Positions 5,660 to 53,841 of a stretch of DNA of 64,000 bases are shown here, in pieces (the stretch's first letter is position 1; every line of letters begins with the position of its first letter). The translations under genes and the position numbers were made by a program. The stretch spans positions 394,196,001-394,260,000 of the forward strand of contig OZ024741.1 of NCBI GenBank assembly GCA_964016885.1, read 5' to 3'. Source of the DNA: Eledone cirrhosa. Taxonomy: Eukaryota. Below the pieces are notes generated by a model. That model was not told the DNA's origin. It saw only the letters and a list, made by a program, of their open reading frames with translations, and made no database searches.

Positions 5660-6310
5660 ACATCCCTTGAATCGCAAAAAATGTTTTGCAAACTTTGAAG
5701 GTGCCAGCTATGACAGCCATTTGTAGTCTATGAATTAGGGAGCTGTGCTCTTTGTCCAAAAATCGAAGTTCAGTGATACTTTGGTCAAGCGGGTTATTAT
5801 ATAACCTGTATCGCCAATAATAATGGGTATGAAATTGAAGGTGTATCTTGGATACTGGATCTGCAAATACCTCATCAATTGTCCGTAGATGTCTTCCTTC
5901 TCCTGTATTTTTCTTACAACGTTTACATCAAGTGGGCAGCTGATCTCTACAACAGAGCACTTTTTCAATGTGTGGTCCCAAACAACAATAGCAGGCCAGT
6001 TGTGCTTTAATTAGGTGGCAGTTTTTATTTTCAAGTCCCACTAGTATTCTTTAGTGTCATCTATCTCAACATATTCCTCCTCATTCGTTTTTAATTTTGT
6101 TTTCCTAAATGCGTTCCAGATGGTTCTAGCTATCACATCGTGTCTCATAGAGAGGTAGTAACAAGACGACATTCTTTCACAGTTCGTAATAATGTGGCTT
6201 ACATCTTTGATCTTTGATTTACATAGCCATTTATTGTCGACATTTATTGCCCTCCCCTTTTGCGTAGCAGATATTTGGTAGGGATTTCTTGTTCCTGTAT
6301 TGCATAGAGA
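5660..6310 (-). pseudogene. R4/Dong-like 3' end: CCHC knuckle plus restriction-like endonuclease
   Basis: KCR..CK....DVSHIITNC...RHDVIAR, then VVEISCPLDVNVVRKIQEKEDIY...FIPIIIGDTGY...GTFKVCKTF. Confidence 0.8.
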
Positions 6311-7178
6311 ACTCCATGCCAGGTTTCTTTAATGATTTATCCCCTCTATGGTCTGTGTTTTTCGTCTCAGGTACCCATGCACAACTTTCTCTGTAAATTG
6401 GTCCATTTTTTGTATGTATGTGTAGCGAATGTGAATGTAGCGAATATGTGTTTTGGAGTTGCTGTAGTTTGTGTTTGTTGCTGTTATTCATTTGAGCGTG
6501 GCATGCACCAGAAAGAGTCGAATTTTGATGGTTAAGTTTGTGCAGAAGTAAATGTGTGTTGGGTGATATATACGGATGTGGTAAATGTGGGTGTGTAGTG
6601 TGGTGGCTGGAGTTATGTGTGTGTATATGTGGGTGTCTTTGTGGCAGCAAGGATAAAGGGAGGTTATAGGAACTGTTGTGGGGAAATGAGTCCATTATAT
6701 ATAGATATACGTAGATACATATATACACATCCTCCTGTACACACACATATATGTGCACCTAGCTTCATATGGTCGCCGACGTCCCGACCATGCGTCAAGT
6801 TTTACTGGAATACATTTTAACATAGCGCTCTACAGCGACGTGACATAATATAAATATATATACACTCTCAGGTCTCGAATACTCGCACTCCCCGGCTTAT
6901 TAATTTTTCAAATGTTTTCCAACCTTTCCCCCGCTCTTATCACCCCAACCCCCTTATCAAATTTTGCTAATCCATCTCCGACGAAATTTTATTTTATGTG
7001 GTAGCATTTTTGCGACAATTAATTTTCTTTATGTATTCAAAAACGTGATACTTGACAAAAAAGAACTTTACAAGAAATCTCAGGCATTTTAAAATAATTA
7101 GAATGGTTGGGGAGTCAATATCTAAACCAAACAACTAATTCTGGTTTTAAAAATATCAACGGACACAACCTAGAAAAA

Positions 7179-7431: not shown

Positions 7432-7463
<32 letters not shown>

Positions 7464-7468
<5 letters not shown>

Positions 7469-8928
7469 GTGGTTACACAACAGTTAGTTCACCATACCGA
7501 GAACAATTGTTTCACCTTAGCGGATCCTCAGCTCGGAATGGGCATGGTTATATGAACAGGAAGGACAACCGTACGAACGCGCATGCGCAGAAACCCGGTC
7601 ACTTCGCACAGGCAATACTAGACTGCGTGCGAGAGGTGTAAGGGAGATAACTGCGAGAGTCCGAAAAGTTTTTAAGTTGAAAATAAAATTACAAAGAATC
7701 AGTACGGAGCCTTGTAGTTATGCAATAGGTGTTTGGCGACGTGTGGACAACGTGTGAAAAATTCATTTCTCGTATTTAGGCAATCACTATTGCGTAATCT
7801 CTTTAGAATAGTTATTCGTTCGTCAATACATAAGCCACACGTCGGATTTCCCCTTGCGTATGGCTTGGACTTAGTGATGGCTTTCCATTGAATGGAGTAG
7901 TCTATACTCGAGTCCATGAGGGACCATACGTGGCTCGCGAGTTTCGTGGATGAATGTCTGTCCGGGTACGTGAAGGTAGACTGGTGGTTCAGGAAACCTT
8001 CCTTAAATCGGCCCTCCGCCATGCCCACATAGGATTTGACCTCCTGTGGTTCGTTTGGTCGGTTGGAAGTGATCACAGCTTCATAAATCACAGCTGGTGT
8101 TGCATTGCTGTTGAAGGGGGAAAGCTTCAGGCTTACGGCAAGAGCACCCTGGTGGGGTGTTGCTCCTAGGGCTGCTGGTGATGTGGGCCTTCATGTTCTT
8201 AGTGCAGGAGTATCCTAGTTTAACTTTGTGTCGGTTAAAGATGGAGCGGTATTTATGACCTATGGGAAAGTGTTTATCTAAGACGGCTAGAATTTTTTTT
8301 CCTACATTGGTTTTAACGTTGAGTGAGAAGGGAGGAGAGAACCAGATAGTTTGTCTATTGTTGCGCTTACTTTTCTTAATGGTGTTGTTGCTAGTAGGAG
8401 AGTAAGTGATAGGTTGTGAGAAACCGCTGTTAGCCAACGCCGTGTTATAGTAGGGTGCCGCCCTGTCAAAGATAGCCTTATTAGAGGAGAGGTTTGAGAT
8501 TCTAGTACTGATATTCTTAACGAAGTTTCTAAAAACAGTGGGAGGGTGGCATGAGTCCTTGTGAATATAATTGAGTTTCTCGTTTAGCTTATGGAAGGGT
8601 CTGTGGGTGGGTGTGCGAAGGTCTAAATTAATGTCTAAGAAATCTACGCTAGAGAGATTGGTGGCTACTGTTATCGTAAGTCCTAACTCATTGAAGGTAG
8701 AAGCTAAGTCTTTTTTAAACCGGTCGAGGTCGTGACCACTTTTATGACTCGATAAAGTCAGTCCATCGTCGCGGTATATTCCCGTGTGGAAGTCCCGTAA
8801 TATGTCTAAGATAAATAGGCCAACCAAGTCACATACGTCAGCACTGTCAAACGATCCCATGGAGACGCCGAATAGGTCTGAAGTTGTAGACGTCTTTGCC
8901 CAGGCTACTGCGCCGTTGAAGAGGAGGG
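7464..8928 (-). mobile_element. PLE (Naiad-like) RT + GIY-YIG, left arm of a palindrome
   Basis: ORFs 8081-8935 (MGSFDSADVCDLVGLFIL, GIYRDDGL, VDFLDI, CSCRKPEA.PLQQQC) and 7699-8091 (IYEA..SYVGMAEGRFK, CGLC, RCPH), separated by a frameshift. Confidence 0.9.
7497..7536 (-). ncRNA. Minimal type-I hammerhead ribozyme
   Basis: Minus strand: ccgag CTGAGGA tccgctaaggt GAAA caattg TT ctcgg. Stem I ccgag/ctcgg, palindromic stem III acaattgt, weak stem II. Confidence 0.75.
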
Positions 8929-10495
8929 AAATCATCGCTCACTGCCGGAAAACCCTCCTCTTCAACGACGGAGTAGCCTGGGCAAAGAAGTCTACAACTT
9001 CAGACCTGTTCGACGTCTCCATGGGATCGTTTAACAGTGCTGACGTATGTGACTTGGTTGGCCTATTTATCTTAGACATATTACGTGTTAGATTCCCGGA
9101 CTTCCACACGGGAATATACTGCGACGATGGACTGACTTTATCGAGCCATAAAAGTGGTCACAACCTCGACCGGTTCAAAAAAGACTTAGCTTCTACCTTC
9201 AATGAGTTAGGACTTACGATAACAGTAGCCACCAACCTCTCTAGCGTGGATTTCTTAGACATTAATTTAGAGCTTCGCACACCCACAGACCCTTCCATAA
9301 GCTAAACGAGAAACTCAATTATATTCACAAGGACTCGTGCCACCTTCCCACTGTTTTTAGAAACTTCGTTAAGAATATCAGTACTAGAATCTCAAACCTC
9401 TCCTCTAATAAGGCTATCTTTGACAGGGCGGCACCCTACTATAACACGGCGTTGGCTAACAGCGGCTTCTCACAACCTATCACTTACTCTCCTACTAGCA
9501 ACAACACCATTAAGAAAAGTAAGCGCAACAATAGACAAACTATCTGGTTCTCTCCTCCCTTCTCACTCAACGTTAAAACCAATGTAGGAAAAAAAAATTC
9601 TAGCCGTCTTAGATAGACACTTTCCCATAGGTCATAAATACCGCTCCATCTTTAACCGACATAAAGTTAAACTAGGATACTCCTGCACTAAGAACATGAA
9701 GGCCCACATCACCAGCAGCCCTAGGAGCAACACTCCACCAGGTTGCTCTTGCCGTAAGCCTGAAGCTTGCCCCCCTTCAACAGCAATGCAACACACCAGC
9801 TGTAATTTATGAAGCTGTGGTCACTTCCAACCGACCAAACGAACCACAGGAGGTCAAATCCTATGTTGTCATGGCGGAGGGCCGATTTAAGGAAGGTTTC
9901 CTGAACCATAAGTCTACCTTCAAGTACCCGGACAGACGTTCATCCACGAAACTCGCGAGCCACGTATGGTCCCTCAAGGACTCGAGTATAGACTACTCCA
10001 TTCAATGGAAAGCCATCACTAAGTCCAAGCCATACGCAAGGGGAAATCCGACGTGTTGCTTATGTATTGACAAACGAATAACTATTCTAAAGAGATTACG
10101 CAATAGTGATTGCCTAAACACGAGGAATGAATTTTTCACACGTTGTCCACACGTCGCCAAACACCTATTGCATAACTACAAGGCTCCGTACTGATTCTTT
10201 GTAATTTTATTTTCAACTTAAAAACTTTTCGGACTCTCGCAATTATCTCCCTTACACCTCTCGCATGCAGTCTAGTATTGCCTGTGTGAAGTGACCGGGT
10301 TTCTGCGCATGCCCGTTCGTACGGTTGTCCTTCCTGTTCCTATAACCATGCCCATTCCGAGCTGAGGATCCGCTAAAGTGAAACAATTGTTCTCGGTATG
10401 GTGAACTAACTGTTGTGTAACCACTTCTACCCAACTCGTCCCATGGACCGAGTGCTCTACCACTACGGATATTACCTTCCAGTGTTCCACCACTA
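8929..10495 (+). mobile_element. PLE (Naiad-like) RT + GIY-YIG, right arm of a palindrome
   Basis: HCRKTLLFNDG...GIYCDDGL, CSCRKPEACP, ORF 9817-10194 GIY-YIG C-terminal half. Reverse complement of 7464-8928 with different lesions. Confidence 0.9.
10357..10396 (+). ncRNA. Minimal type-I hammerhead ribozyme
   Basis: ccgag CTGAGGA tccgctaaagt GAAA caattg TT ctcgg, in the PLE 3' UTR. Confidence 0.72.
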
Positions 10496-10499
10496 TATA

Positions 10500-10560
<61 letters not shown>

Positions 10561-10750: not shown

Positions 10751-10820
10751 GACTGGGCGTGTCATGTTATTTCCTCAACAAGAGGCCGATCGTTGAGGAA
10801 ATAACATAACACGCCCGGTC
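10751..10820. repeat. Short inverted repeat
   Basis: gactgggcgtgtcatgttatttcctcaac / gttgaggaaataacataacacgcccggtc. Confidence 0.85.
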
Positions 10821-11120
10821 ATGCCACCCAGCTCGCAAATCATGTATGGAGCCTTAAAAACAACGGCCCACTTTTCCCCATCAAATGGAGCATATTAGAA
10901 AGATTGGATTCTTTGAGACAGCTAGAAAATATTATTTTTGTTCTATTTTTGTTTTATCTTGACCGTGGTCTCGCAAGTGTTACCTCCTATGATCTTTCTT
11001 TCTAATTAAAAAAAATGAGTTGGGGTCCAGAACCCAACGAAACTTAAGTGCCTATTCATTTATGTCACTGTTATAATTATACATATATATATAATTATAT
11101 AATTATATAATTATATATAT

Positions 11121-11622: not shown

Positions 11623-11669
11623 AAGAGAAAAATATATATAGAAAAATATATATATCGAAAAAAAATTTT

Positions 11670-12510
11670 TTTTTTCTTTTTTTGTCTCTCTCTCTTTTCT
11701 TAAATGATTAAAACGAAATATTTTACTTTGTGTGAAGTGTTAAGGTATTAGTTGATTTATTTATTATTTAACAATGGCATTTATTTATCTATTTATATAT
11801 TTAATTATTGTCTATTACCGGTTTCAGCATTTATATGCATTATCAAATGATAGTTAAATGTATTAGTGTGGTGTCGCACATGTTAAACAGAAGGTGCAGA
11901 AAGAATAATGTTATATACAAACAAGGTTTAAGAAGTGAAAAGAAAAAAGAAAAAGGAAAAAAAACGTGCATAATGTGGAACGTAAAAAGTCAATGTGGAA
12001 GAAAAAATAATGTTATTTACAAGCACAGTCATTGAAGTTAAGCAGTTCAAAATGTGTTAATATCGCAAGAGTGCTTAGTTGAACCATGGTTCCATGAAGG
12101 AGGCAAATGGTGGACAGTCCACCATTTGCCTCCTTGACTGTGCTTGTAAATAACATTATTTTTTCTTCCACATTGACTTTTTACGTTCCACATTATGCAC
12201 GTTTTTTTTTCCTTTTTCTTTTTTCTTTTCACTTCTTAAACCTTGTTTGTATATAACATTATTCTTTCTGCACCTTCTGTTTAACATGTGCGACACCACA
12301 CTAATACATTTCACTATCATTTGATAATGCATATAAATACAGAAACCGGTAATAGACAATAATTAAATATATAAATAGATAAATAAATGCCATTGTTAAA
12401 TAATAAATAAATCAACTAATACCTTAACACTTCACACAAAGTAAAACATTTCGTTTTAATCATTTTCTAACCCAGAAAAAAGAGAGAGAGAGACAAAAAA
12501 AGGAAAAAAA
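11670..12510. repeat. ~840-bp palindrome centred on 12116
   Basis: Centre aaggaggcaaatggtggac-a-gtccaccatttgcctcctt. Arms near-identical (mirror ORFs 11808+ and 12156-). The right arm lacks ~65 bp. Confidence 0.92.
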
Positions 12511-12602
12511 GATATTTTTCTTCCTCATAATCGTCTCTTTCTCCCTGTTTTCATATATATATATATATCCTAACTCGTGTGCCTCCTCTCCACATTTTAT
12601 TT

Positions 12603-16824: not shown

Positions 16825-17091
16825 AATATATGTCAAATAAATCGAGAATGTATTTCTGAGGTAAAGTCAACACAAAAGGCTCAATAGACCTAGGAAATAG
16901 TATGGTGTGGACTCCTAACTCTTGAGAGTGTCGTATGGGTGCCATATTGACATACACACCGTATGTCAATATGGCACCCATACGATACTCTCAAGAGTTA
17001 GGAGTCCACACCATACTATTTCCTAGGTCTATTGAGCCTTTTGTGTTGACTTTACCTCAGAAATACATTCTCGATTTATTTGACATATATT
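16825..17091. repeat. Near-perfect 267-bp palindrome, 5-nt loop
   Basis: ...gccatattgacatac acacc gtatgtcaatatggc..., arms ~131 bp, one mismatch noticed. Confidence 0.95.
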
Positions 17092-31599: not shown

Positions 31600-33222
31600 A
31601 CACAGTTGTGCCTAGCACCTAGGCAGGTGACAACCAACCACTCACCACTGATGCCGCTTGGTGCCCCAGTCCCCGGCCCCACACCCGATCCTCCATCCCC
31701 ACCAGTCGACACCTGCAGCACATGCAGCACCACGAACAGACGGAAGAGAGGCCGGAACTGTTCGAGGTGCGACTGCATCCACCACCTTGAGGCCTCTTTT
31801 TTTCGGCTAGCCTGACCGCTCTTAGGAAGAAAGAGGGCGGCATACGCCCCATCGCTGTGGGCAATGTCTTCCGGAGGCTGGCTGCCAAGGTGGTCTGCAG
31901 GTCCATAACACTTGAACTGGCGAGGATTTCAGTCCGGTGCAACTGGGTGTCGGTGTGTCCGGTGGCTGTGAGGAGGCTGCACATGCAACCGGGCAGTCTT
32001 CAACAGCTGCCAACCGGAACCGGCATCCAGGGACTCCAGGCACCTACAATCGGTGGTTCCTGCCCTGACGGGAATCGGCCTCCAGGTCAACTCGTCCAAG
32101 TCGGAGGTCGTGAATGTCAGCCACGATGCTGAGAGCTTTGCAGCCTCTGTCTCGGACATGCAGTCCATTCTCCACCAGGTGCAGGTGACCCCCAAAGAGG
32201 ATGTCCTCACCCTCGGGTCACCGATCCACCCACCGGCCATCTGCTCCACCATCAGGTCCAGGCTCCGACAACTCCAGGCCCTCACGAGCCGACTGGGCTT
32301 GATCGACGGCCACCCAGCTCTTTTTCTGTTGAGGAACTGCTTCGCCGTGCCGAAGCTCCTCTATACCTTCGCAGCGCTCCGTGCTACACCCACGCATCTC
32401 TCCCCGCTGACCTCGATACTTGTATCCGAACAGCAACCGAGAAGATATGCAACGACAGGTCTGACGACATTGGATGGCAACAGGCTACTTTATCTGTCAG
32501 ATATGGCGGCCTTGGCCTCCGGTCCCCTATCTCCCTGGCGTTTCTGTCGTCGGTAACCTTATGCCGCGCCCTCGTCAGCAGCGTTCTTCAAAACACAATG
32601 GAACCCTCTGTGATCAGGGAACGTGAGGCCGCCTGTGAGACGTGGGACCGGCTGGGACTAAGCCCAGTAGACATCCCTCCTCCTTCTCCCCCTGCTCATG
32701 TCAAGCCCCCCCCCCCACAAAACACACGCGCCAGCTCGACTAGCACCGCCTTGCTTGTTTTCGTACGGCCTCCAAACCCCCCAATGGCGTCTGGCTCTAT
32801 GCCTTTCCCTCCTTCTCGACTGGCACGTAGCTGGATAACAATAGCCTGCGCATCGGCGTTTCCTTGAGGCTTGGCCTCCGGATCTGCGATCCACACCAAT
32901 GTCGCTGTTGATCCACCGTGGACTCTTTCGGCCCCCACCCACTTTCCTGTCGCCACAGTGCCGGCCGCCTTCCACGTCATGTTGCTCTCAAAGATGTCAT
33001 AAAGCATGGTTTGGACGCTGCAGGATCCCCCTTGTGGATACTTCTGGCATCCTCGGCCCTAGGGCTACCTCCCTACTCACCACCATAGGCGCTGAGCTGG
33101 CTAGCCGCACGTGTATGCCTCGCGAATCGGAATGGCTCTTCCAGCGCGTCTCCCTTGCCGTCCACCGGGGAAACGCCTTCCCTATTCTGTCCGGCGGGGC
33201 TGTGGGGAGGCCACTAATATGA
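31600..33222 (+). pseudogene. CRE-clade non-LTR retrotransposon, internally deleted
   Basis: LTALRKKEGGIRPIAVGNVFRRLAAK, GLQVNSSKSEV, ALFLLRNCFAVPKLLY, YGGLGLR, LDNNSLRIGVSLRLG, WLFQRVSLAVHRGNA. Visibly GC-rich. Confidence 0.85.
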
Positions 33223-34829: not shown

Positions 34830-35340
34830 TCTTCTTGCTATTTCAAGCGTTAAACTAATAGATTCCTTCCATATACTGTACCGTTTGTGTTGTTATTTCT
34901 GTTTACCTTTTACATACATACATGCATATATATATATATACTCTTTTTTTTTCTTTACCTGTTCCAGCCATCTGGCTGAGGCCATGCTGGGGCAACGCCC
35001 CACTTATAAAAAAGAAGTTTGTTTGTTTGCACGTTGACCGCTAATAACACTAAATAAAATTGATAATAATTAGGGTTTTACGTGTTTTCAACAAGCTTGC
35101 TGTCGATTTACTTTACGAAAATGAAAATGAGGTGGGTATAATTTACTGCTGTTTCTAGCATACAGGTACTGTCTGGTCGTCAATTTTGCTATCTATACAT
35201 AGATGAAAACAATACACCTCTCAATCAAGCCACCTCCTCTCTTTTTCGTTTGTTATCGGCCGGACTGACATCTGTCTCAATCTTTCTCTTTCCCTCTCCC
35301 TCTCATTACCTCTTTATCTCTCTACCTGTATATTCTGTAT

Positions 35341-35880
35341 ATGTGTCGCGCACATTATGCTAAACCCATGGGCTCTAAATACCTTAGACTCAACAACTCA
35401 GCAATGTCCAATAGAGCTAAGTTTAATATTCTGATCGCAGACTTGGTAAGAGTGATGAAAAATGTGTCCCGTATGTGCGACCCAACTGAAATGGAAAGTC
35501 ACATCCAACACTTCATCAATCATATGCAGTTCTCTGGCTACAACCAAAGAGACAGAATCAGAATATACAAAGGAGCCACGGAGAAGTATAAGACCCTCAT
35601 AGAAATGGACATGAAAGGAATTTGCCCATTGTACAGGAGCAAATCATGGAATAGCTTAGATAGGACTAAACATAAGATAGGGAAATCCACTTCATGGTAC
35701 GATAACCAGAGATTCCAGAGTGTCATGTTCGTGGATGCTACCCCTAGGGGGAAATTAGCTAAGCAATGTAAAAAGGCCCTAAAAAAAGACCCATCTTACG
35801 ATTAAAGTGGTAGAAAAGCCAGGAACTACCATAAAATCCCTGATCAGCAAAACATACCCCTTTAAGAAAACCCACTGTAT
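35341..35880 (+). pseudogene. PLE RT thumb/linker fragment
   Basis: HYAKPMGS...SAMS..K..IL...R...N.S...MQFSGY...LYRSK.W...SWY...VMFVDATPRGKLAK...KVVEKPGTTIKSL. Confidence 0.7.
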
Positions 35881-40339: not shown

Positions 40340-41285
40340 TACAAATATAAACTATAAGATATAGGAATACAAAATAACAAATAGGATGTAACATATAAAC
40401 ATATAAACAAATAAACTGCAGAGCTCAAAACCAGTAAAGCTTAAAACAGAAAATAACTGGAAGAGATATCTAGATGATTGTTTCATCCTTTGGCTTGAAA
40501 GTATAGAGAGACTTAAAGAATTTAAAGCACTTCTAAATGGACTTAACACAAAGATTCAATTTACGATGAAATACAGCCATCAGCAACTTCCCTTCTTCGA
40601 CATCCTTATCAAGAAAACTAACAACAAAATAGAAACAGACATATTCTATAAGCCTATAGACTACAAGCAATATCTTCCATTCAACTCATGCCACCCGAGA
40701 CACACTAATATGAATATCCCCTACAACCTAGCCAAAAGGATTTGTAAAATAGTATCTAATAGAAACACCTGTTACATGCGACTACAGGAGCTAAAGGACA
40801 CACTCATCAGCAGGAATTACCCACCATCCCTAATTAGCAATGGATTCCAACGTGCCCTAAAAGTATCCAGGAACATAGACACCCCAAACTAAAGAATGAA
40901 TCGAAACTGAAAGCCCTAACATACATCTCCACACAAAACCCTATAAACAATGAGGCCTTCGACACCATCCTCCACAACATCCCTTAACTAAAAAGAAATC
41001 ATAGAATGAACCAAATCTTTCATAAAGAGAAAAGACAACCCAAATCAATGAAAAATATCCTAACACAGGCCAAAGCCCAATCGACAACAACAACGAAACC
41101 AACAGTAAAAAAAAATGCAGAAGACCCAACTGTGACATATGTGTCAACCTAATAGAGGGATCGGAGTTCTGCTTTACTGTGAAAAACAATTTCATATGCG
41201 CATCAGAAAACCTGATATATGTATTAACTTGCTCAAGCTTACGAGAGCAGTACGGAGGACAAACTAAAAACAGACTTCATCAGCG
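40340..41285 (+). pseudogene. PLE (Neptune-like) RT, Zn-knuckle and GIY-YIG start
   Basis: WKRYLDDCF, LPFFDILI, FYKP...YLPFNSCHP, CRRPNCDIC, CASENLIYVLTC...QYGGQT. Confidence 0.88.
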
Positions 41286-41461: not shown

Positions 41462-41619
41462 TGTCCCCATTGCTTCTGTTGGACACTACCAGAGGGCGTT
41501 AGTCCCGGTGTTTCGCATAGTTACGGCTTTCTTTCTAAATGTTTATCTATAAACATACTGTACTGTATTTCTTTAGAAATACGAAATTTCAATACATATC
41601 TGTATACAGCTACATCCTA

Positions 41620-43577
<1,958 letters not shown>

Positions 43578-43777
43578 NNNNNNNNNNNNNNNNNNNNNNN
43601 NNNNNNNNNNNNNNNNNNNNNNNNNNNNNNNNNNNNNNNNNNNNNNNNNNNNNNNNNNNNNNNNNNNNNNNNNNNNNNNNNNNNNNNNNNNNNNNNNNNN
43701 NNNNNNNNNNNNNNNNNNNNNNNNNNNNNNNNNNNNNNNNNNNNNNNNNNNNNNNNNNNNNNNNNNNNNNNNNNNNN
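43578..43777. other. Assembly gap (200 N)
   Basis: Run of N. Confidence 1.
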
Positions 43778-43893
43778 TATGACTCCAGTTCCCCAGTGAA
43801 TTAACAACCCAACAAGGAACTGGGCATATCAGAGTATTGACAATATCATACACCTAAACAACATATGTACTTGTCTATACCATACTAATTCAA

Positions 43894-43948
43894 ACTGCCT
43901 GAAGAGGTCACAGCCAAAGATGGCTGTCACTGAAATATATATAGCAGT
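43894..43948 (+). ncRNA. Hammerhead ribozyme (family H3)
   Basis: actgc CTGAAGA ggtcacagcca aaga tggctgtcact GAAA tatata TA gcagt, followed by aataaa. Confidence 0.82.
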
Positions 43949-43989
43949 AATAAAGGAAGCTAAATTTTAATCATTTGACTTTTATTTAA

Positions 43990-44909
<920 letters not shown>

Positions 44910-44999
44910 AACCAGTAAGACCCCGACAGCTGAGCTCAAGCCGTTTCGACGGCTAATCCTGGACTCTTCCTTCGTTATATATATATACACTTCCTTCGT

Positions 45000-45061
<62 letters not shown>

Positions 45062-45117
45062 TATATAAAATAAGTAAGTCAAACATGTTAAATTTTGCTT
45101 CGTTTATTATAAATTGT

Positions 45118-46104: not shown

Positions 46105-48940
46105 GAAAGAGTCAGTGAATCATTGTAACTCATTTGCGGGTGTGGTGACCCGCAGATGGGTAAAAGAAAATCCACAGGGAGTGAAGGACCCCGAGCTATT
46201 GTTACAGTATCTTTCTAAAAGAGGGAAACTTTGAAATAAAACCTGCAGTTGATGTGATTACTGATCATATGGCTTGGGCCTGTCACCAGACAGAAACTCA
46301 GAGATTGGTGCTCGTGTAGCACAAGCGTTTGCGACTATAATCCAATGATGTACAGATGTCTCTTTTGTGATCTCATCTGTCATTTTTACAACTGAAAGTC
46401 CTGTGGTGATGGAGGAGTGGTGACATGTGCAGACCTGACCAGTTGAATGTATATAGTTGCAAATCTACACATAGGCGGCAGGGGTCTTATCATAACATCG
46501 TTGTTATGTCTTCCTGTGACAGGGGCTAACTCCGGTGGAGACGCCTGTGTCTGAGCAGCCCTATCAGGGAGAGCACCGCTCACCCAAATTCTTGGGAAGG
46601 TGCTAGAAAAGGTGCATTAAAAATTGCCTGTCACATCAATGTTGGGTAGTTTATTGCCGCTATCGGCGGTTCATTCAAGCAGGAAAAGAAAAAGTGATGG
46701 ACACAGTAAAACATTTATGACAAATCGAATCAAACTCAATATTTGTTGGAATGTCAGAACCCTTCTGGACAAAATCTCATCAAACCAGCCAGAAAGAAGA
46801 ACCTCAGTGGTTACAAAGGAACTCCAAAGATTAAATATAGATATTGCAGCCTTATCAGAAACACGTCTATCAAGGTGTGATCAGCTGACTGAAGCATCAT
46901 CAGGTTTAACACTTTTCTGGACAGGGAAACCAAAAGGAGAACGGTGAGATGATTATGTAGGTTTTTCAGTGCGAGAAACTCTAGCACAACATTTAAAGTG
47001 CCCCTCTAGAATCAGTGACCATATAATAAAGTTGCGCATTCCACTTGCATGTTGGCGATGTGCAACTATTCTGTCAGTTTATGCTCCGACTCATGCTACA
47101 ATTACATCTACTTCAGTCGAAGAAAAAGTGGTCATTCTTGGTGATTTCAATGCCTGGGTTGTCAGAGACCATGTGACATGGGATGCACTAGGCCATTACA
47201 ACATCGGTAAGATAAATGCCAATGATTTGAAGCTATTTGAGCTTCGTTCGGAACTCAACCTAGCCATTTGCAATGCATTCTTCCGCCAAAAGAAAAAGCA
47301 TAAAGTTACCTGGATACACCCAAGGTCAAAATATGGCCACATGATAGATTTCATAGTAACCCAGAGATGCGACCTGAATGATGTCTGTAATGTGTGCGTC
47401 ATGCGTAGTGCAGAATGCAACATAGATCATACGAAGGTTCAGGAGAAGTTTAAGTTACGTATTCGGAAAAATTCTCGTATGTGCGGGATCAAAAGTCTGA
47501 AGAGTATTGATGTTGGAAAGTTAAAACGGCAAGAGGTATGTGAGACTTTGAATAAACGTTTGAATAATATTGACTTTGATGGAACGTGGATAAACTTCAG
47601 GGATTGATTGTATACAGCAGGAGCAGAAGAACTTGGATTCAGGGCGAAAAAACAACATAAAGACTGGTTTGATGATAATAATCTGGTTATCAGCCGACTA
47701 TTAAAGAAAAAAAAACATGCTCTTCATGAGAAACTTCTGGGGGAGTGCCTTACGAATTTAACTGCTATTAAAAAGACATAAAGAATATAAACCCAACTCG
47801 AACTGAGAAGGCTTAAAAATAAATGGTGGTTAAAGATCTCTGAAGATATTCAAAGTGCTTATAGCGCAAAGGATTCAAAACTGTTTTATAGTCTTGTGTG
47901 TACAGTATAAGGTTCAACATCTTCGTCTGTTGTTCCCACAAGGTCCAAAGACGACACTGCCATCATCAAGGAATCAGAGAAAATCCTTAAGCGTTGGCAA
48001 GAACATTTTACTGATTTATTTGATAATCCATCATCAGTTGATCATGATGTGATAGATGGCATCCCCCAATATGTTGTAAATTTAAAAATGGATCGATTAC
48101 TGGATTATAATGAGGTTAAAATAGCCATCAACCAGTTAAACATGGGTAAAGTACCTGGATCAGATGGAATCCTGTGGAATTGTTAAAGGTTGGTAATAAG
48201 AACATAACACAAACAATACTCCATCTCATCACAGAGTGCTGGGCTAGAGCTCCTATACCACAAGATTGGATAGATGGTATCTTGGTGACCCTGTTTAAAG
48301 GTAAATGGGATAAAGGAGTCTGCGATCACGACTGTGACATCACTCTGTCGGAGTCTGTGGGAAAAAACAACCTTAAAGATCTACAGTTTGAAATTCAGAA
48401 CTGGGAAGTGCTTGCTTTAAAGAGGGGTAAATGGAGAGGACATGTCAAGGAAGTCTGTAGAATGTTTGAAGAGAGACGTCTTGATCATGAAAAACTTAAA
48501 AGTCAGCTTCGAAAAGGCCACAGTATGAACCTCAATAAGAACATGGAGAGCTGGAGTTGTGAAGTGTGTGGTCGTCCACTTCTCTCTAAATATGGGTACA
48601 TCACTCATTTAAAATCACATAAAAAGCCAACTGTATGCAGCTCTATCCCTTCAGTGCTAGGTGAGACAACATGTGTGGTGTGCAAAAAGATCTGTAAATC
48701 AATCTCTGGTCTTAAAAGGAATATGAGGGTACATAAGGATGACATCCCACAAACTGACTCAATAAATCCAATAGAGGGCACATATTTTGTCTGTCACATT
48801 TGCTGCAGATCGTGCAAATCTAATGCTGGATTGGCAAACCACGTAAGAGGCCATGAATGGACGTTTGGAGTTCGTGGTGATGGTTGATGGAGGTGCATAG
48901 GGAGATGGCAATCATCTGCAAAGATGAACCAATCACCTTG
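46105..48940 (+). mobile_element. RTE LINE: 5' UTR, APE endonuclease, RT deleted, three C-terminal C2H2 fingers
   Basis: CWNVRTL...DIAALSETR, VYAPT, ILGDFNA, HPRSK.GHMIDF, IPQDW.D..LFKGK, then a jump at ~48360 to the 3' end with CEVC..H...H, CVVC..(N)...H and CHIC..H...H. Confidence 0.9.
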
Positions 48941-51683: not shown

Positions 51684-51747
51684 TATTGTATAAAGCTGTG
51701 CTTGAAGCGAAATCTTATTTCTTATATATATATATATATATATAAGA

Positions 51748-51863
<116 letters not shown>

Positions 51864-51890
51864 TATATATATATATATAAAAATATATAT

Positions 51891-52353
<463 letters not shown>

Positions 52354-52643
52354 CTGACCTAAGAGAAGTATAAATAAATAAGTAAATTAAATTAAATAAA
52401 ATAAGATAAATAAATACATACACAAGCACATAAACACACACTAGTCACCCAGCAGACACAACACTATACACACTAGTCACACATCACACATAACACTATA
52501 CACACACGCAAACGCATGCGCAAAGAAGACAAAATAAAATAAGATAAACAAACAAGCTAATAAATAAATAAATATATAGACAGACTGAACAAAAAAAATG
52601 GCGTAGACATACAACACAACAGGAGGAACAATGAATATAACAC

Positions 52644-52682
52644 CACTGACGATGTTGCAGATGTGCAACGAAAGATTTATGT
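52644..52682 (+). ncRNA. Minimal hammerhead-like motif
   Basis: ca CTGACGA t gttgca gatg tgcaac GAAA gatt TA tg. Perfect stem II, weak stem I. Confidence 0.55.
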
Positions 52683-52909
52683 AAATTATGTAAACTATAT
52701 ATATATGTGTTTGTCTATATTGTATCTGTATTATTTTTGACCGCCGGTCAGTCAATGGCAACATTGAGGACCGAGTAAGTTAGATCGCAGATATATATAT
52801 ATAAAAGACAGCGAGAAGCGAAAACCAACCAAACAGTGAGTGTGTTCTGTTATTAATTCTGGCAATATTACGCAAATATGACCCTCCCCAAATATAACAA
52901 TATAAATAT

Positions 52910-52940
<31 letters not shown>

Positions 52941-52943
52941 AAT

Positions 52944-52998
<55 letters not shown>

Positions 52999-53001
52999 AA
53001 T

Positions 53002-53034
<33 letters not shown>

Positions 53035-53037
53035 AAT

Positions 53038-53068
<31 letters not shown>

Positions 53069-53087
53069 AATATATATATATATAAAT

Positions 53088-53144
<57 letters not shown>

Positions 53145-53147
53145 AAT

Positions 53148-53178
<31 letters not shown>

Positions 53179-53181
53179 AAT

Positions 53182-53230
<49 letters not shown>

Positions 53231-53233
53231 AAT

Positions 53234-53286
<53 letters not shown>

Positions 53287-53289
53287 AAT

Positions 53290-53346
<57 letters not shown>

Positions 53347-53425
53347 TATATATATATAAATATATATATATATAAATATATATATATATAAATATATATA
53401 TATATAAATATATATATATATAAAT

Positions 53426-53456
<31 letters not shown>

Positions 53457-53459
53457 AAT

Positions 53460-53580
<121 letters not shown>

Positions 53581-53583
53581 AAT

Positions 53584-53616
<33 letters not shown>

Positions 53617-53841
53617 AATATATATATCGTTTCTGAATTTGTTTAGTAAGATTCTTTATCTGAAATCGTGTGTTGAAACCGATATTGTTATACTTTGGGA
53701 GGGTCATGTTGCCAATAAGAAACACACGCACCAGTTGCTTTCACTTCAATTTAATTTATTATATATTTATAAATTTACAAATTTATAAATTTCTGGTTGG
53801 TTGGTTGGTTCCACAACCAGATAGTTGTTTATATATATATA

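Follow-up and report, generated by a model that had tools for sequence, protein, structure and literature searches.

Penelope-like elements (PLEs) of the Hydra clade are characterized, in the sections of PMC8557442 (Craig et al. 2021) that define the clades, by a reverse transcriptase (RT) followed by a GIY-YIG endonuclease (EN), DKT and RWK motifs, a CxCx5C linker, a YRDDG motif, a hammerhead, a length below 3 kb and (TA)n. According to the same sections, Naiads have an N-terminal EN linked to a C-terminal RT, a DKA motif, a CCHH in the EN and a length of 3.4–4.4 kb, and the canonical hammerhead is absent. Palindromes with two hammerheads are already published: Penelope-13_HM of the Hydra clade, as described there, is a 3045-bp entry whose 5' end holds an inverted, 5'-truncated copy and whose two strands each have a hammerhead. 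Our locus shares this design, with nearly equal arms, whereas the inverted copy of Penelope-13_HM is 966 nt. It also resembles the Naiad clade, as that source presents it, in the (TA)n target, the inverted 5' copy and the one-sided tail. For Poseidon, a further PLE clade, the in vitro results given in PMC11167929 describe an enzyme, predicted to be a dimer, that cuts and extends both strands from two start sites bounding the tail.

The window (the whole 64,000-nt stretch of Eledone cirrhosa contig OZ024741.1 analysed here) contains two arms arranged head to head, 7464–8928 on the minus strand and 8925–10495 on the plus strand. Each has a partial RT followed by a C-terminal GIY-YIG and a minimal hammerhead motif, and is flanked by (TA)n. 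The features are as follows.

7434–7463, unstranded: (TA)n target, left side (from the sequence)
7464–8928, minus strand: left arm, tailless 5'-truncated copy assigned to the Hydra clade, with RT motifs 4–7, thumb, linker, GIY-YIG and 3' UTR
7497–7536, minus strand: predicted minimal type-I hammerhead motif of the left arm (pattern as in the Hydra rows of File S2 of PMC8557442)
8925–8928, unstranded: 4-nt microhomology AGGG at the inversion point, common to both arms (from comparison with other copies)
8929–8952, plus strand: 24-nt unpaired spacer, coding, in the right arm only
8925–10429, plus strand: right arm, 5'-truncated copy, ORF stop at 10192–10194
10357–10396, plus strand: predicted minimal hammerhead motif of the right arm, with one of the two stem II pairs broken at 10377
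10430–10495, plus strand: 66-nt one-sided tail, identical to the 66 nt that open the next tandem unit of full-length copies (L013, L042, L079)
10496–10558, unstranded: (TA)n target, right side (from the sequence)

The reverse complement of the left arm aligns to 8953–10429 of the right arm with 1421 of 1461 columns identical (97.3%), the differences being 28 transitions, 12 transversions and 5 indels. The likeness of the two arms is far beyond chance, confirming the two head-to-head RT and GIY-YIG arms of about 1.46 kb described in an earlier note on this DNA. The spacer, read in that note as in-frame coding sequence of the right arm (EIIAHCRKT), is indeed family coding sequence. The note also had each arm end in a hammerhead and then (TA)n; both arms do have the motif and the flank, but the right end does not follow this order, because it carries the 66-nt tail that is absent from the left arm. 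This tail and the central microhomology were both missing from that account. In sequencing-run contigs, the family sequence diverges upstream of 8925; judged by other copies, the right arm starts at 8925, and AGGG therefore belongs to both arms. The overlap of the two arms (1451 nt) is the longest among the sampled pairs, a rank that is partly the result of selection because this pair was the query.

The element is almost certainly a Hydra-clade PLE, to judge from its sequence, and one decayed copy among thousands. Longer natural genomic copies have the order RT, thumb, linker and GIY-YIG on a single ORF with a C-terminal EN, and 149 homologues have the full domain order, with identity up to 48%. 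The linker CxCx5C reads CSCRKPEAC, the EN contains CGLC..E..N..CPH (CxxC and CxH around E and N) with no internal CCHH, and YRDDG is present in longer family copies. DKG is changed to DKT (VLSDKTNN) in the longer copies L003 and L004, in a region missing from the window arms. The N-terminal motif is RLRWRA in six and RLRWQA in one of the distinct near-full copies; homologues have RWK or RWR. The family unit is 2551 nt, below 3 kb, and 141 of 163 sampled family 3' ends are flanked by TA. The order and motifs bear out the earlier assignment to the PLEs. Its narrower placement among the Naiads is rejected, since the EN is C-terminal rather than N-terminal, DKT stands in place of DKA, no CCHH is found, a hammerhead motif is present and the unit measures 2.55 kb rather than 3.4–4.4 kb; the CxCx5C linker and YRDDG, on which the placement leaned, are Hydra features. 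In the supplement text of PMC8557442, which covers Naiad proteins only in part, 13 of 13 YRDDG matches are Hydra proteins. Pfam gives no significant family for the window or the family ORFs, and the best E value of a PDB profile search is no lower than 0.22.

The nearest described element, Hydra-1_Obim, agrees, as far as PMC8557442 presents it, in RT followed by GIY-YIG, DKT, RW(K/R), CxCx5C, YRDD, a hammerhead, a length below 3 kb and (TA)n. It also has CxxC and CxH around E and N, and the two proteins run in parallel when compared by eye. The present element differs in having RWR rather than RWK, another hammerhead sequence with a stem II of only 2 bp, and a tail of 66 nt rather than 30–40 nt. 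These differences therefore set it apart, by eye, as a separate family: a new family of a known clade.

A hammerhead motif at each end of the palindrome, as the earlier note proposed, is recovered, with core motifs at 10357–10396 and 7497–7536. The predicted layout comprises stem I CCGAG/CUCGG, the core CUGAGGAU..UGAA, a 2-bp stem II (CC/GG), the palindromic stem III ACAA/UUGU, and U at the cut. The free core position is variable (G 60, A 22, T 2) and its neighbours are invariant. Neither arm gives an Rfam hammerhead match at gathering or E-value thresholds. An Rfam score is not expected for minimal PLE hammerheads. The fold is no better than that of shuffled sequences (z −0.44 and −0.35). The core ctgaNgat..tgaa, the stem III palindrome and the cut-site U match the Hydra rows of File S2 in PMC8557442. 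Such minimal motifs are weakly active and work as dimers, as reported in the relevant part of PMC4209133, and ribozyme cleavage is dispensable for insertion in the in vitro results given in PMC11167929. Because the two ribozymes lie on opposite strands, no single transcript would contain both in sense orientation, and a joint function of the two is rejected. They would be passengers of a duplicated 3' end, with no joint function predicted. A hammerhead cut as the origin of the 5' ends is also rejected, as 0 of 36 sampled arm starts lie at the predicted cut.

Indels were assigned to arms by measuring the same intervals in other family copies. The left arm has a 12-bp in-frame loss and a 2-bp loss; the right arm has a 4-bp loss and two 1-bp gains, both in homopolymer runs. 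The different lesions reported before (12 bp lost on the left, 4 bp on the right) are thus upheld against other copies. In addition, Phe replaces the third Cys of the linker in the left arm, and the right arm has YCDDG instead of YRDDG as its RT motif. The locus is a dead insertion as judged from its reading frames: neither arm is predicted to encode a working protein, because roughly the first 1050 of the 2551 nt of the unit are missing from both, and each is frameshifted. None of the near-full copies examined has an intact ORF, and their longest open frame is 460 aa of about 700.

The design recurs throughout the genome. In the 3.0-Gb assembly, exact matches number 5,598 for a 24-mer from the element end and 741 for an internal one, against 0 for reversed controls. 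Among the first 100 of the 5,598 end-motif matches, neighbours within 5.2 kb are head-to-head in 19 cases, tandem in 1 and tail-to-tail in 0. Sixty loci were then taken in list order, from row 23 on, among the 100 matches listed of the 741; 29 are head-to-head, 27 are solo or tandem, and 4 are other. Nine loci that duplicated already sampled places were removed before counting. The head-to-head shape is very common in this genome and the locus is ordinary, so that its importance was overrated in the earlier note. An assembly or read fold-back artefact could be suspected, since none of the listed contigs and RAD reads of runs X1–X3 spans the stretch and the joints listed do not include the central one, though both unique flanks are present in them. 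However, the arms differ at 40 sites and 5 indels, only one of them has the tail, and the same design appears in 29 of 60 consecutively sampled loci. With arms this divergent and a design this recurrent, an artefact is extremely improbable, and we reject it.

Other repeats accompany the palindrome. The segment 7215–7400, beside a (TA)n run, is a 120-bp head-to-head mini-palindrome with a one-sided extension; it is the end of a different, very abundant element, probably another PLE family, with related pieces in 13 other sampled loci and high depth in the sequencing runs. A second Hydra-like endonuclease fragment lies at 10751–10903 (ATQLANHVWSLK; tblastn E 0.003), with a 30-bp inverted piece at its 5' end. 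Further palindromes span 11659–12519 (860 bp at 88%), pieces of which recur beside other loci such as the L013 flank, and 16825–17091 (267 bp at 97%). Decayed RT and thumb fragments with an RYLDDCF motif at 35269–35805 and 40407–40892 are matched by no Hydra protein and have no Pfam support; they resemble other PLE clades. Decayed non-LTR retrotransposon pieces, zinc-knuckle/REL-like and AP-endonuclease-like by eye, are located at 5735–6490, 31972–32867 and 46948–48887. Very long (TA)n/TTTA arrays occupy 41500–45100 and 51700–53700, with an N assembly gap near 43600–43790. Outside the window, L017 (3079–4056) has a 326-aa open frame that belongs to another Hydra family; its thumb and linker are separated by an asparagine-rich insert resembling the N-rich inserts of Adineta Penelopes described in part of PMC3846280.

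Divergence between the two arms of the window is 2.8%, compared with 3.2% and 4.1% for the nearest other copies and medians of 5.0% and 5.4%. A tree of 104 segments places the arms as sisters (98/93, with the bootstrap not fully settled), and 11 non-majority variants, of which 9 are rare, occur in both. Each arm is thus nearest to its partner, and not to other copies as the earlier note had considered, and its proposal of one source for both is borne out by the sister relation and the shared variants. No sampled copy with the variant set of the window, as a source or sister, was found; no other has more than 3 of the 11 variants, and three other genomic copies with one private variant each have none of the other variants covered.

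The same signal extends to the family. In 31 pairs, subfamily sites are shared in 227 cases and discordant in 30, compared with 2069 and 11485 between loci. Rare shared variants are tenfold more frequent within pairs (0.39% per site) than between arms of different loci (0.039%). A rival reading has twin priming on two RNA molecules, or two insertions, followed by gene conversion that made or raised the likeness of the arms. In accordance with it, four pairs (L017, L021, L035, and L058) share no variants and differ by 7–9%, and L058 differs at two subfamily sites. The synonymous enrichment of rare shared variants (11/31 versus 85/380) is not significant (p 0.12), and in the pooled set these variants lie farther from arm differences than random (24.6 versus 17.9 nt; 0/2000 permutations), which may hint at some gene conversion adding to the shared-source signal. 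Clustering is absent at the window locus (mean distance 19.9 versus 17.6), where 40 substitutions and 5 indels remain spread along the arms. Subfamily-level shared sites are strongly enriched for synonymous changes (76/127, p 3e-14) and therefore predate insertion, and direct tandem copies form sister pairs just as strongly (L042, 99/93). We regard this rival as quite improbable.

For the mechanism, 46 simple two-ended palindromes were pooled from three samples, each with its own bias: best BLAST hits, end-motif matches, and internal-motif matches. Forty-two have one tailed and one tailless arm (p 2.6e-9 against free choice), 3 have two tails, and 1 has none, partial tails being scored as tails. 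Among 24 complete solo ends, 13 are tailless and 11 tailed, with 7 more short ones. Tailless ends also occur solo, indicating that both bounds of the tail are primary start sites. In seven pairs (L031, L100, L101, L102, L116, L117, and L126) neither arm contains the other, the tailless arm reaching 83–2043 nt further 5'; the second arm of L117 is tail only. L031 (99/95) and L102 (100/98) are well-supported sisters. Microhomology of at least 2 nt is present in 21 of 30 junctions without inserted bases, against 16% by chance, though it is possibly overstated because arm ends are defined by BLAST.

Some further junctions and ends were observed. L028 and L078 are apparent solos with a 7–16 nt stub of the tailless end at the 5' junction. 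The complex junctions of L071, L089, L108, and L113, with several internal pieces of switching orientation, suggest template jumps during insertion. The three commonest family 3' end points correspond to window positions 10423–10429, 10460–10465, and 10490–10495, each after an ACCAC motif plus TA, which may mark RT start sites.

The earlier note took the left arm to be a fold-back. In this reading, the cDNA primed at the tail folded onto its own AGGG, 24 nt from its terminus, and served as a DNA template; the resulting copy was cut or joined at the inner end. A related idea, self-priming on an antisense template, is proposed in part of PMC3846280. The window junction fits exactly as a 4-nt stem with a 24-nt loop, so that fold-back is possible for this locus, and private variants common to both arms agree with it. 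Two of its predictions, which count against twin priming, are also seen: in 29 of 41 unequal pairs, that of the window among them, the tailed arm exceeds the tailless one in length (L103 is mis-scored in this count, its tailless arm being tandem), and arms of nearly the same length are over-represented (within 40 nt in 3 of 33 long pairs, null 2.5%, p 0.013). However, the seven non-nested pairs need extra deletions, although later lopsided central deletions could mimic such pairs. Moreover, as solo copies end at either site and tailless primary cDNAs are common, fold-back should often yield tailless pairs, yet only 1 of 46 is observed. The 42 of 46 mixed palindromes and the seven non-nested pairs thus argue against fold-back as the general route. 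The geometric part of the earlier claim stands and the family statistics make the rest doubtful; we consider fold-back unlikely, with some weight left to it.

Given the tail, nesting, and microhomology statistics and the in vitro results in PMC11167929, twin priming on one RNA is the simplest reading. Probably, though with modest assurance, a (TA)n site was cut and its two strands primed reverse transcription of one source RNA at two tail-end start sites, and the cDNAs were joined by microhomology. Family identity, head-to-head shape, tailed and tailless arms, common source, and the 4-nt microhomology are the observed parts of this model, from which we infer the remaining steps. Both target strands would prime reverse transcription of the same RNA. 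The enzyme, probably a dimer, would initiate two cDNAs, one at the outer tail end and one 66 nt upstream of that point. The two would halt no more than about 28 nt apart, possibly where the RNA was broken. Their 3' ends would anneal by AGGG/CCCT, fill-in would yield the palindrome, and the arms would have decayed separately after insertion. LINE-1 twin priming similarly employs two primers from one target site and gives an inversion with microhomology. The L1 pieces barely overlap, whereas here both arms cover the same 3' sequence.

In a coordinated form of twin priming, which we hold tentatively at slightly less than an even chance, each target strand would receive its own tail start site from the dimer, one the outer and the other the inner; the trailing RT would displace the leading cDNA, and both would here have reached the same RNA break. 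The Poseidon element PAc of Anolis (Frangieh et al. 2024, PMC11167929) is alike in its two RT start sites bounding the tail and its AT-rich target, and in having both strands cut and extended, as observed there in vitro and proposed here. It belongs to another clade, and the results presented in that source include no inverted-copy model and no strand-specific start site. That no difference in start sites between strands was seen there, in Poseidon, counts against the model. In the open-access literature, with subscription papers outside the scope, we found no twin-priming account of PLE inversions, and from 2022 only PMC11167929 is relevant.

The locus is of value as a long, well-preserved record of Penelope integration. 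If true, coordinated twin priming would explain why the tail is one-sided, why one copy is inverted, and how a sense template can yield the head-to-head polarity. One tail per palindrome, a common source, non-nested arms, and microhomology lead to a prediction that is testable in the existing in vitro system. The long inverted repeats, if transcribed, could give double-stranded RNA.
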